From: Schmidtea polychroa
Lineage: Eukaryota
Assembly (NCBI GenBank): GCA_044892525.1
Contig: CM097885.1
Span: 12,960,001-13,024,000, forward strand
Direction: 5' to 3'
DNA: 64,000 nucleotides
The notes under the pieces are model-generated. The model saw only the letters and a list, made by a program, of their open reading frames with translations. It was not told the DNA's origin and did no database searches. Positions 27,801-45,800 of this stretch are shown in pieces. Every line of letters starts with the position of its first letter. Position 1 is the first letter of the stretch. Position numbers and translations under genes: made by a program.

Positions 27801-30800
27801 AATTAAAACAAAAAATAAAAAATGAAAAATTAAGATATAGAAACCGGAAAAAATAGTAAAATAATAGAAATTAAATAATAAATAAGAAAATAAATAAAAA
27901 ATAAAAGAAAACAGTAAGGAAAACACCAAGAAAACTAATGTTGGGCTGAGTCGGAAATTTAAACGTCGAAAACATAAACTTAGGAAATTTAAACTTAGAA
28001 GGTAAGACAAATAAGATACTAAAGAAAATAAAAACAAAATAAATAACTTAAGAATAAAACGGAACCAGAATAAGAAAAAATAAGAATTAGAAAAATAAGA
28101 ATTAAAACAAAATAAAAAAATAAGAAAATAGAAATAGGAAATAGATCAACCAACAAAAGGAAGGAAATAATGAGGAAGTTAAGAAAATAAATAGAAAACC
28201 ATAATAAAAATAAAGAAAATAAGGGAAAATAATCATAAAACAGAAAAAAAAAAATTAAATAATTAAAATAAGCGGTACTCAAATCTGATTGGTCCGCATA
28301 CACGCAAAAACACTATATATACAGACACAAGACTCATTACATTCACGGTTAATTTCAAATTACTACAGGTAAGATTCAATCGAAAAATTATACTCGGTTA
28401 ATTTCAAATTACTACAGAGACCATCAGGACTCAAGACTCAATTCAGCGCATTCAACAGGAAATCACAATTCAAGGGAAACAGTATCGCATACTACAAAAT
28501 CAACGTTGCAGAGAGATAACTCAAAATTTTCGTCTCAGCTCACAGACTCCAATTTATTAACTGCAGTAAGGCGATTTTTTTTTGATTATTAAATGTTATA
28601 CGTAATTATTTAATGATTAGATTTTTAACTTAAAAAGTTTTCTTCATTTGATTTCCCAGTAATTTATTTACTTATTTAGTTATTTATTTATTTATTTAAA
28701 TAGTTATTTTGTTGTAATGATCATTCGTAAATAAACGATTTATTGTAGTAGTTCATGACTTATGTATAAGACTATTTTATAAAATTTATTGAGACACGTG
28801 GCGTTGAGATGGATGGCGTTCATGACAAGAGGTGCCCTCGGGAGCTCTATCGTTGGACGTACATCGTTTCAATCACGCAGCGAGAATGGGCCGGCAGGTG
28901 AAGGTTTCTTCCCGGGTTCAATCGCTGAGGGCAACCAAAATTTTGATTCAAGTAACAGGAATTTGATCGAAGGAGTAGTTTCAGACTTGTGATAGAATAA
29001 CTATGCGATATACAGTGACTGAGGTGGACACTTTATCTGTTCTTGCTGGGTTACACGACGTGGAGTAGCTCTGGTAAAAGCGCTGTGAGTGTTCAAAAAT
29101 TGAAACCTTCGACGTAACCACTGACTGTATTCTTGGTTCGAGACCGAATTTATGCGAGAGTAGAGGGATAGCGGCCCACTAAACCAGCGGCCCTCTGGGA
29201 CAAAGACATACCCCCTCCCCCTCCCCCCGTCGGTAAGATTTTCAAAAATATTCTAAGTCTAAAAATACATTTTTTTTCAAGGTCAAATTTAAACAAAGAC
29301 ATATGACTCATCAAGGTCATTGAAACAAAGACCATGACTCATCCTATGACTCATCAAATTTCTCAAGGTCATTTAAACAAAGACCATGACTCATCCCATG
29401 ACTCATCAAGGTCATTTTCAAGGTCATATGACTCATAATATGACTCATCAAGGTCATTTTCAAGGTCGTGTGACTCATAATATGACTCATCAAGGTCATT
29501 TTCAAGGTCGCATGGCTCATCCAAGGTCATTCCCAAGGTCATATGAGTCATCGCGATGACTCATCAAGGTCATATTATTATTTTTTAAAAATATTATTAT
29601 TTTTATTATTATTTTTAAAAATATTATTATTTTATTTTAAATTTTTTCAAAATTCCCGCCAACAAAAAATATTAATCGAAAGCTCATTTTAAAGCTCAAT
29701 CCAAGACCTTTCGAATGAGCTATATATCTTGTTATTATTATTATTATTATTATTATTAGTATTATTATTATTATTAGTATTAATCTATATACTCCGAGTC
29801 TAACCGACAAAATATTTTGTCCCCCCATGGGTAATGCTCACAAAGGTACTGCTCACGCTCAACAACTCGCATTCGATTATTTTATTTTTTTAAGGTCATA
29901 TCATTATTTTTCAAAATATTGCGTAATAATAATAATTTTCTTTAAATCGTTGATTATATGATAATATTTTTACTTTTGTTTTAATTATCGATTACTTAAT
30001 AATTTAATTTTGTTTAAATCGTTGATTATATAATAATATTTTTGTTTTTGTTTTAATTATCGATTACTTAATAATTTAATTTTGTTTAAATCGTTGATTA
30101 TATAATAATATTTTTATTTTTGTTTTAATTATCGATTACTTAATAATTTCATTTTGTTTAAATCGTTAATTATATAATAATATTTTTTGTTTTAATTATC
30201 AATTACATAATAATTTCATTTTGTTTAAATCGTTGATTATATTATTTTTTTGTTTTAATTATCGATTACGTTATTTTTTTTTCAAGGTCATATTATTATT
30301 TTTCAAAATATTATTATTTTCAAGGTCATATTATTAATTTTCAAAATATTATTATTTTCAAGGTTATATTATTATTTTTAAAATATTATTATTTTCAAGG
30401 TCATATTATTATTTTTCAAAATATTATTATTTTCAAGGTCATATTATTAATTTTCAAAATATTATTATTTTCAAGGTTATATTATTATTTTTCAAAATAT
30501 TATTATTTTCAAGGTCATATTATTATTTTTTGTTTTAATTATCCATTACTTAATAATTTAATTTTGTTTAAATCGTTGATTATATTATTTTTTTTGTTTT
30601 AATTATCAATTACATAATAATTTCGTTTTATTTAAATCGTTGATTATATCATTTTTTTGTTTTAATTATCGATTATGTTTGTTTAAATTATCGACTATGT
30701 ATTAATTTAATTTTGTTTAAATCGTTGATTATATCATTTTTTTGTTTTAATTATCGATTACGTTTGTTTAAATTATCGATTATGTAATTATTTAATTTAT

Positions 30801-42800: not shown

Positions 42801-45800
42801 AATAATAATAATAATAATAATAATAATAATAATGATAATAATAATAATAATAATAATAATAATAATAATAATAATAATATTAATAATAATAATAATAATA
42901 ATAATAATAATAATAATAATAATAATAATAATAATAATAATATTGATTAAAACTTTGAAAATAATAATAATAATTTTGAAAATAACATCTTCCGCGCGGG
43001 CGTTATTATCTTTCCCAATAATAATAATAAATTAAATTAATACATAGTCGATAATTTAAACAAACATAATCGATAATTAAAACAAAAAAATGATATAATC
43101 AACGATTTAAACAAAACGAAATTATTATGTAATTGATAATTAAAACAAAAAAATAATATAATCAACGATTTAAACAAAATTAAATTATTAAGTAATTGAT
43201 AATTAAAACAAAAAATAATAATATGACCTTGAAAATAATAATATTTTGTAAAGTAATAATATGACCTTGAAAATAATAATATTTTGAAAAATAATAATAT
43301 AACCTTGAAAATAATAATATTTTGAAAATTAATAATATGACCTTGAAAATAATAATATTTTGAAAAATAATAATATGACCTTGAAAAAAAAAATAACGTA
43401 ATCGATAATTAAAACAAAAAAATAATATAATCAACGATTTAAACAAAATGAAATTATTATGTAATTGATAATTAAAACAAAAAATATTATTATATAATTA
43501 ACGATTTAAACAAAATGAAATTATTAAGTAATCGATAATTAAAACAAAAATATTATTATATAATCAACGATTTAAACAAAATTAAATTATTAAGTAATCG
43601 ATAATTAAAACAAAAATAAAAATATTATCATATAATCAACGATTTAAAGAAAATTATTATTATTACGCAATATTTTGAAAAATAATGATATGACCTTAAA
43701 AAAATAAAATAATCGAATGCGAGTTGTTGAGCGTGAGCAGTACCTTTGTGAGCATTACCCATGGGGGGACAAAATATTTTGTCGGTTAGACTCGGAGTAT
43801 ATAGATTAATAGTAATAATAATAATAATAATAATACTAATAATAATAATAATAATAATAATAATAATAATAATAATAATAATAATAATAATAATAATAAT
43901 ACTAATAATAATAATAATAATAATAATAATAATAATAATAATAATAATAATAATAATAATAATAATAATAATAATAATAATAATAATAACAAGATATATA
44001 GCTCATTCGAAAGGTCTTGGATTGAGCTTTAAAATGAGCTTTCGATTAATATTTTTTGTTGGCGGGAATTTTGAAAAAATTAAAAATAAAATAATAATAT
44101 TTTTAAAAATAATAATAAAAATAATAATATTTTTTAAAAATAATAATATGACCTTGATGAGTCATCGCGATGACTCATATGACCTTGGGAATGACCTTGG
44201 ATGAGTCATGCGACCTTGAAAATGACCTTGATGAGTCATATGGCCTTGGGGGGAATTTCAAGGTCATATGAGTCATCTTATGAGTCATGGTCTTTGTTTA
44301 AATGACCTTGAAAATTGTGATGAGTCATCGGATGCGTCATATGGCCTTGAAAATGACCTTGATGAGTCATAGTATGAGTCATATGACCTTGAAAATGACC
44401 TTGGTGAGTCATGGGCTTTGTTTAAATGACCTTGAAAAAATTTTTGTCCTCGATGAGTCATATTATGAGTCATATGTCCTTGAAAATGGCTTTGATGAGT
44501 CATAGGATGAGTCATGGTCTTTGTTTAAATGACCTTGAGAAATTTGATGAGTCATAGGATGAGTCATGGTCTTTGTTTCAATGACCTTGATGAGTCATAT
44601 GTCTTTGTTTAAATTTGACCTTGAAAAAAAATGTACTTTTAGACTTAGAATATTTTTGAAAATCTTACCAACGGGGGGGAGGGGGTATGTCTTTGTCCCA
44701 GAGGGCCGCTGGTTTATTGGGCCGCTATCCCTCTACTTGCGAGAGTTAACCACTAGTCACCCGGAAAATAACTACTTCAATCGATAGCATTATTACTTTC
44801 AATTAAAAACATTATCACAGTAGATAGGAAGAAAATTTTCATTATAAATTAAGACATCATAATACATTTGAGTTAAGTCACGATTGTAAACTTAGCTTTC
44901 TGTCACGTGAACAGTTCCATCGTTGATTTGGTTTTTCATAGTCATCTTTTATTTCATCCTTGAGACTTACTCGCATCTGGTACATCCATCGGCAGAAAGA
45001 GTAAAAATTTCAGACAATAGGAAAAGTCAGACGAAAATCCAGTTTCAGAGAGTGCTGTGCGAATTAACAGACCGTAATATCGTTACGAATTTTTCAACGT
45101 AAAAACGTACAGATAGGTAACATTCAATCCATACTGATAAGATCTATGAGACGATGGATGAGAAATTACCAAATTGGCAGGATAAATCCAATATTTTGTT
45201 AGCTTTACGTACATGCATTGATAAGGGACTAGTTAACTACCACACGCATAGATAAGAACTCATGAGAGAGATAGACTGTGAACACGAGGAGCTTCAATTC
45301 ACACGGCATTATGTCCGATAAATAGTGAGCAAAACGAGCAGCAATGACTATGGGTATCAGATAACAACTCACATGTGGTAGGGCCAAGTGGGTCATTCAC
45401 AAGTATTGATTACCGAGATGAGACAGTAAGGAGATAAGCCACCTGCTCTGCAATTATTCAGCTAAATATGAGACCTCATTTTAAAGTGCAATCATTAAGA
45501 TTAATTTTCCTAAATTACACATTGGAATAAAAACTTATTGCAAACTTTTATATCTGTTTAATCACTGGTCTGATATCACTATATCCAAATGTTGCATGTT
45601 TTCGGTATACTTAGACTGCAAGTTAATACATTTTTTTTCTTTTTGAAACAAGTAACATAAAATGTTGTTAGTGTTAACTCTAAAATTGAACACCGCGATC
45701 GCAAACAATATTAAGAAAATATTAACTCTGAAATCCTCCAAAGTTTTTATAAAAATCGAAACAAATATTTTGTCCATTTTATTGTTGATGCTACTAGTCC

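Follow-up and report, generated by a model that had tools for sequence, protein, structure and literature searches.

A gene-less fold-back element with Polinton ends in Schmidtea polychroa, its family and its probable dependence on Polinton helpers

Non-autonomous derivatives of Polintons (Mavericks) are already known, and the replication of Polintons has so far been inferred almost wholly from their gene content. Polintons are described as elements of 13-25 kb with terminal inverted repeats (TIRs) of 100-1,500 bp and target-site duplications of 5-8 bp (PMC10748475), and the pPolB of polintons as having a terminal-protein domain (PMC11071308). In butterflies, Polintons that lack polB and carry transposable elements are apparently still mobile, and TIRs of ~2 kb that duplicate genes have been described (bioRxiv 10.1101/2025.02.07.637071). 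For planarians, Maverick expansions and control of Polintons by PIWI-interacting RNAs are on record (bioRxiv 10.64898/2025.12.11.693146; PMC8532177). Here, a stretch of 64,000 nucleotides from the 781-Mb genome of Schmidtea polychroa (assembly GCA_044892525.1, contig CM097885.1, here C1, positions 12,960,001 to 13,024,000 of the forward strand), referred to as the window, was analyzed for a gene-less fold-back element of 15,579 bp with type-A Polinton ends at window positions 29159..44737 (unstranded). The element is real and represents a single recent insertion from a large gene-less fold-back family. This is probably a family of Polinton-dependent satellites whose palindromes were formed by copy-back linked to replication.

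Polinton ends and gene-bearing helpers

The element begins with AG and finishes with CT (5' start AGTAGAGGG, 3' finish CCCTCTACT), and the 6-mer TGCGAG stands directly outside both borders, at 29153..29158 (+) and 44738..44743 (+). The probability of a chance match between two given flank 6-mers is 0.0006. The AG...CT termini and the perfect 6-bp duplication put forward in a preliminary description of this DNA were confirmed at both borders. The left terminal region (29159..29760, +), which is common to gene-bearing copies, contains, in short subterminal repeats, 11 copies of TGACTCA and eight of TCAAGGTCA, and the right terminal region (44137..44737, -) contains 17 and ten. Taken together (29159-29758 and 44137-44737), these amount to 28 and 18 copies, against one of each in 48.4 kb of flank. 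Both motifs resemble binding sites, of AP-1 and of NR5A-type nuclear receptors, respectively, and from this likeness the ends of the element may act as host-responsive enhancers.

Exact searches of the whole genome with the 19-bp type-A end returned 261 matches (136 forward and 125 reverse), with 0 for the control. Two sister ends were recognized, type B, which is identical to type A from approximately base 51 on (1,684 matches), and type C (554 matches). Twenty-four type-A elements were examined, consisting of this one, 20 of 31 other end pairs no more than 23 kb apart, and the three best matches of another search. The 31 pairs were taken from the first 100 type-A end positions listed, and inclusion of the three best matches biases the sample slightly toward close kin. 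A matching 6-bp duplication was found in 21 of these 24 elements, in one case with an altered terminal base, and the 24 perfect duplications listed were all different. Copies elsewhere with 6-mers of their own, which the preliminary description had expected, therefore exist.

Searches with tblastn showed that eight of the 24 type-A elements carry all six core genes, five carry part of the set and eleven are gene-less. The gene order in these helpers is ATPase, integrase, minor capsid, major capsid, protease and pPolB, and a TBP gene neighbors the ATPase. Pfam searches of the helper proteins named the A32 ATPase, rve, TBP and RING and left the polymerase frame unnamed; a search of the whole genome with family PF03175 scored pPolB at 91 places. 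The predicted fold of the candidate capsid protein is a double jelly-roll (pLDDT, a model confidence score, of 89.7), and its best structure matches were the capsids of iridovirus and PBCV-1 (E 1e-16) and of mavirus (E 2e-13). The eight six-gene copies share the 19-bp end with the element under study; they supply candidates for the autonomous partner, with the same termini and with pPolB, integrase and major capsid, that had been envisaged, and the reading of the ends as Polinton hallmarks holds, as the same ends are found on gene-bearing Polintons. A helper marker gave 805 exact matches in the genome.

Common ends, duplications specific to each locus and dispersed near-identical copies place the element among non-autonomous Polinton derivatives. 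It is not an autonomous Polinton, having no pPolB, no other core gene and arms above 100-1,500 bp, nor is it a cut-and-paste foldback element, given duplications of 6 bp rather than 7-9 bp and same-ended partners that are Polintons. The dependence on helpers and the satellite-like class proposed in the preliminary description are supported by helper-type ends, by the duplications and by the lack of genes. On the same evidence, the element would be moved in trans by helper enzymes.

Additional observations were made on the gene-bearing copies. The TBP-like gene, of 145 amino acids, lies head-to-head with the ATPase gene (L081:4182-4619, -; Pfam PF00352, E 3e-15). Copies A2 and A3 (L063-L066) are near-identical, gene-bearing and 19 kb long, with 2.8-kb TIRs, and have no copy of the short module m described below. 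They are located 276 kb apart with the same mismatched flanks, and for this reason the pair is probably a segmental duplication.

Arms, body and mosaic structure

Arms and repeats were mapped by tiled self-comparison of the element. The outer inverted repeat consists of a left arm of ~5.4 kb (29159..34565, +) and a right arm of ~6.4 kb (38362..44737, -), accompanied by three inner inverted pairs and two direct repeats. The inner pairs are 34744-35195/36192-36600, 35609-36195/37967-38511 and a hairpin at 36184..37506 (unstranded) with arms of ~330 bp (36184-36512/37177-37506) around a 664-bp loop. This hairpin, which is common to copy A21 and to many matches in the genome, is the only pair to reach 98.4% identity, the outer arms being 84-91% identical. 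The self-comparison confirmed the inverted arms and further inner pairs reported at the outset. The accompanying statement that nearly the whole element is a palindrome was fair in substance and slightly generous in wording, as inverted pairs cover 0.83 of the non-microsatellite bases (0.74 by a stricter count).

Absent from the preliminary description is the AT-rich tandem repeat and microsatellite that makes up ~2.2 kb of each arm, with (ATT)n runs at 29870..32020 (+) on the left and (AAT)n runs at 41370..43710 (-) on the right. It also did not include module m, a sequence of ~80 bp with a TATA-like run, a 16-bp palindrome core and a G/C-rich tail. Module m occurs nine times in the element, at 29784..29868 (+) and at positions 32021 (+), 33596 (+), 35081 (+), 36253 (-), 37368 (+), 39363 (-), 41314 (-) and 43721 (-). 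In gene-bearing copies it marks the inner edge of the TIRs. Several helper genes also have it, in reverse orientation, at their 3' end, and it may serve as a promoter, a terminator or a protein-binding site.

Decayed RING genes were confirmed as the sole recognizable cargo, since RING gave the only protein match in tblastn searches (E 0.01), which found none of the six core genes (no pPolB, integrase, ATPase, capsid or protease). Besides the RING pieces, there is no high-complexity frame of at least 90 amino acids in the element. The left RING remnant (32105..32553, +) has lost its 5' part and has a 111-bp tandem duplication at 32334-32553, and on the right the remnant and its upstream region (40475..41230, -) contain a frameshift and match the RING cassette of A13, a gene-bearing copy, at 91% identity. 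Each RING has lost one zinc ligand out of eight, the third in the left copy and the seventh in the right. An exact-identity look-up for five proteins returned no database record.

The non-coding body of the element (32610..40400, unstranded; blocks A, B, C, D, F, G, H and K) is common to many gene-less elements. It was present in all eleven gene-less type-A elements and had no match in the eight gene-bearing copies examined. No coding trace was seen in the body, whose frames match gene-bearing copies through module m alone, and four of 32 indels between the arms are multiples of three. A search for structured RNA in the body returned no Rfam family, just two microsatellite matches (E 0.37-0.63). 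Overall, the element overlaps each of the eight gene-bearing copies over 6-19%, which corresponds to the ends, module m and, in A13 and A19, the RING cassette; the remaining 81-94% is without counterpart. The RING points inward in this element and toward the end in A13 and A19.

These comparisons bear on the proposal, made in the preliminary description, that this copy arose when one end of a Polinton was copied back on itself. The proposal was not supported, given that most of the copy is absent from the eight gene-bearing copies, that its RING runs opposite to that of the helper and that its arms derive from two sub-lineages. A helper end joined to its own inverted copy, which is copy-back in the strict sense, is not what this locus holds; such an arrangement was found in A12, B1, P2 and P3.

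Two sub-lineages, X and Y, are combined as a mosaic in this copy, and each is 98-100% identical to other copies. A segment of sub-lineage X (32020..36195, +), 99-100% identical to copy A8 in most tiles, is set in a Y backbone, which matches copies A14, A21 and A22 at 96-100% identity over most of the terminal parts and of 36250-41350. The left switch between X and Y falls inside microsatellite and module m, and the other junction (36192..36195, +) is an exact 4-bp microhomology; the 40-mer across it was absent from the 165 other loci examined. The divergence of the outer arms is therefore due to hybrid origin and not to age, and the insertion is young. Arm identity is 99%+ in A16, A20 and P3. 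The same two lineages also make up the mosaic copies A20 and R6. In addition, copy B4 combines type-B ends with a body that is 98-100% like that of type-A copies A14, A21 and A22 over most tiles, and the outer gene-less element at locus R1 has type-C ends. Because of the type-A copies, B4 and the outer element of R1, the body is known under A, B and C end types, and ends appear, from these sequence matches, to have been exchanged between lineages.

The number of body copies was approached with two exact 22-mer markers, which gave 909 and 2,071 genome matches, with 0 for controls. The first 100 places per marker comprised 71 and 75 loci. Of these, 28 and 25 were inverted pairs no more than 6 kb apart, each in fold-back orientation and none reversed. 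Extrapolation gives roughly 650 and 1,550 body loci from the two markers. Some spacings recur, namely 2,000-2,029 bp in seven pairs and 2,779 and 3,496 bp three times each, which suggests that palindromes may have been amplified after their formation. The inverted fraction is 0.19-0.99 in gene-less copies, versus 0.06-0.26 in the eight six-gene copies.

Our best guess is that the body derives from an accessory region, long since decayed, that belonged to an older Polinton. Locus R1 (C1:129.12-129.15 Mb), where core genes stand between body-like arms, was considered as a parent and rejected, because the core genes there belong to a separate Polinton that has inverted ends of its own and is inserted in a gene-less copy. 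The stretch 38131-38168, considered as a deletion junction, was likewise rejected; the Polinton nested in R1 identifies it as an insertion site. In copy A8 (L074, element positions 12013-16214), a nested element with frames of 1,055 and 364 amino acids breaks the RING remnant; the longer frame was tried as pPolB and rejected, as tblastn finds no core gene there. Polintons of other families are nested in gene-less copies at L126:36-L127:7520 (C1:129126036-129143520) and at P3 (L158/L159), which suggests that gene-less copies attract or tolerate Polinton insertions. At C1:1833674-1840600, an inverted pair of body markers is located 3.7 kb from a long pPolB frame, and this is either a nested insertion or a candidate parent.

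Palindromes, probable copy-back and competing explanations

Palindromes at 99%+ identity with different centers were found in the gene-less copies A8, A16, A17 and A20 (gaps of 189-816 bp) and also in B1 and P3. Equal palindromes at several loci suggest that these structures move as units. A12 and B1 each carry an ATPase-side end and an inverted copy of that end, which in B1 extends over 3.6 kb at 99.5% in an insertion where the perfect duplication is missing, and A4 contains a one-end inverted copy from the polymerase side. Additionally, ten of the 91 scored pPolB matches form five close inverted pairs, of which four were examined and all proved to be palindromes of 99.2-99.9%. P2 has its turn point inside pPolB with a 7-bp gap. 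P3, nested beside body blocks and flanked by a TACTTA duplication, is complete over its 12.6 kb; its arms, each with a copy of pPolB, mirror each other at 99.8% about a center of 369 bp. P1 and P4 have arms of 99.2-99.7% around pPolB with an element end near the center and were not counted as clean copy-backs. Inward pairs were found in two of 100 ATPase-marker neighbors. Copy-back as a process, which the preliminary description had placed at this locus, is thus seen in the family (A12, A4, B1, P2 and P3) and not in this copy. The pPolB palindromes at L155 (C1:235390405) and L161 (C3:32540792), both with a near-central element end, have the same 10 preceding flank bases.

Hairpin and panhandle products occur in phi29, adenovirus and fungal linear plasmids. 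By analogy, helper pPolB and terminal protein would start at both ends of the element and displace one strand, which could then fold on its own inverted repeats. A template switch, or the repair of a broken end, would copy one arm from the other, by which palindromes would be made and refreshed. Switches between co-replicating molecules at module m, microsatellites or microhomology would produce mosaics and swapped ends, and the helper integrase would insert the product with a 6-bp duplication.

Several points weigh against this account. Perfect duplications are missing in three of the 24 type-A and two of four type-B elements, and the helpers sampled are the eight type-A elements with six genes plus portions of a few more, compared with 805 helper-marker matches. 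Among 68 body loci in the first 33 Mb, only 15 have a type A, B or C end within 12 kb; the remaining 53 may have other end types or be fragments. No parent of the body was found among the copies examined, and clean gene-less insertions of 3.2-9.6 kb speak against a strict length rule. Every step of the mechanism, including hairpin replication and packaging, is drawn from genome copies alone, and a cut-and-paste element also shows extension of inverted repeats and X-E-X mosaics, which are ascribed to chromosomal repair or conversion (PMC3573991).

This last point leads to the strongest competing explanation, namely that the family depends on helpers as described but that its palindromes and mosaics come from chromosomal break repair or conversion, protein-primed replication only copying the forms that already exist. 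The TIRs of the Drosophila element Galileo extend by internal sequence, and its mosaics have a foreign center (PMC3573991). Here too the foreign segment (32020-36195) is internal, with ends and duplication intact as conversion would leave them, and thousands of copies would have been ample templates. Set against this are tracts of 3.6-6.1 kb at 99%+ that reach the terminus in B1 and P3, compared with Galileo TIRs of ~1.2 kb, the turn of P2 inside a gene with its 7-bp gap, and a central junction in this copy that is non-homologous save for 4 bp. None of these points is decisive, and we consider chromosomal repair an unlikely but serious source of the palindromes.

Two further explanations received less weight. 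Direct copy-back of one end of an autonomous Polinton, with a parent family that was not sampled, draws some support from the existence of such products in the genome (A12, B1, P2 and P3), from the pPolB match beside the body-marker pair at C1:1.84 Mb and from the RING cassette common to A13 and A19. It is rendered improbable by the mere 6-19% overlap with the eight gene-bearing copies, by the nesting of other Polintons both in R1, the apparent parent, and at P3, by the derivation of the arms from two lineages, and by a body without coding trace whose arm indels are so seldom multiples of three. Inverted chimeras are a familiar artefact of long reads, and a chimeric fold-back read or a collapsed repeat could in principle have produced the structure. 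In four of four public runs (two studies), contigs covered all 30 bins of the interior, and in three of these runs the strand changes at 36520/37188, on the border of the inner hairpin's loop; this coverage extends to the interior and not to the flank junctions, and it supports the family rather than this particular locus. No match of the right flank was listed for any RNA dataset. With a perfect duplication between unlike flanks, arms only 84-91% alike, halves that are each 98-100% identical to different copies, and many copies with different duplications, and with the interior and one hairpin junction recovered from independent runs, an assembly artefact is barely credible.

Copy-back linked to replication within a helper-dependent family thus remains the preferred reading. 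A more far-reaching version of it, which we put forward only tentatively and think rather doubtful, is that the body is a self-perpetuating polintovirus satellite genome, replicated through hairpins by helper pPolB, packaged in helper capsids, held close to helper length through mirror duplication and able to pass between helper families by an exchange of ends at module m. If this were true, the body would outlive any single helper and may outnumber the helpers in the genome. A search for the module pattern in viral contigs gave 0 matches, which is uninformative on packaging either way. The Polinton-like length noted in the preliminary description is shared by the five gene-less copies with the highest mirrored fraction, at 13.9-17.2 kb compared with 16-19.5 kb in helpers; it does not extend to the gene-less copies of 3.2-9.6 kb, which have perfect duplications, so that selection of length for packaging has only partial support.

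Window context and comparison with known systems

Outside the element, the window contains a single-frame host gene for a monoacylglycerol/diacylglycerol acyltransferase at 56059-57081 (-; Pfam DAGAT, E 3e-124), for which a search returned animal relatives only, at no more than 58%. A reverse-transcriptase remnant in overlapping frames is located at 60229-61928 (+; Pfam RVT_1, E 8e-12), and further unnamed frames are found at 18937-20527, 46386-47159 and 49927-50739.

Compared with Polintons/Mavericks (polintoviruses, adintoviruses), the element agrees in its AG..CT ends, 6-bp duplication and length range, and differs in having no core genes, inverted repeats of 5.4-6.4 kb with inner pairs, and a private non-coding body. 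The defective Polintons of butterflies resemble it in lacking polB while seeming mobile; they keep most core genes, and palindromes go unmentioned in the available part of that account, whereas here no gene is left and 40-99% of most copies is mirrored. The element is also similar to Galileo and Foldback-like elements of Drosophila, in which inverted repeats are long, internally repetitive and longest in gene-less copies, grow by internal sequence, and, in several subfamilies, enclose one and the same center (PMC3573991). Galileo differs in being a cut-and-paste element of the P superfamily with a 7-bp duplication, TIRs of at most ~1.26 kb and no polymerase- or capsid-bearing partner. Palindromic Polinton forms are unmentioned in the available portions of PMC6431247, PMC4028283 and PMC8502044. 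No published description of whole-element palindromic or gene-less Polinton satellites was found, which is a weak negative, as the founding Polinton papers and Repbase lay outside the search.

Young palindromes with many turn points, some inside pPolB, would preserve, in fossil form, past strand displacement and template switching. Their junctions are exact targets to be sought in free DNA, and the family offers a test of how Polintons are copied. A gene-less body under several end types would be a class of satellite invisible to gene-based Polinton searches, and long palindromes at hundreds of loci matter for genome size, for assembly and as sources of double-stranded RNA in the host.

Among protein-primed replicons, palindromic forms are known from phi29 in vitro, from hairpins of fungal plasmids and from the adenovirus panhandle, where one end is duplicated in inverted form by a template switch and replication proceeds through hairpins. 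Those replicons are free DNAs of the tube or the culture, whereas the palindromes described here are integrated, inherited, present in hundreds of copies and built around a body of their own.

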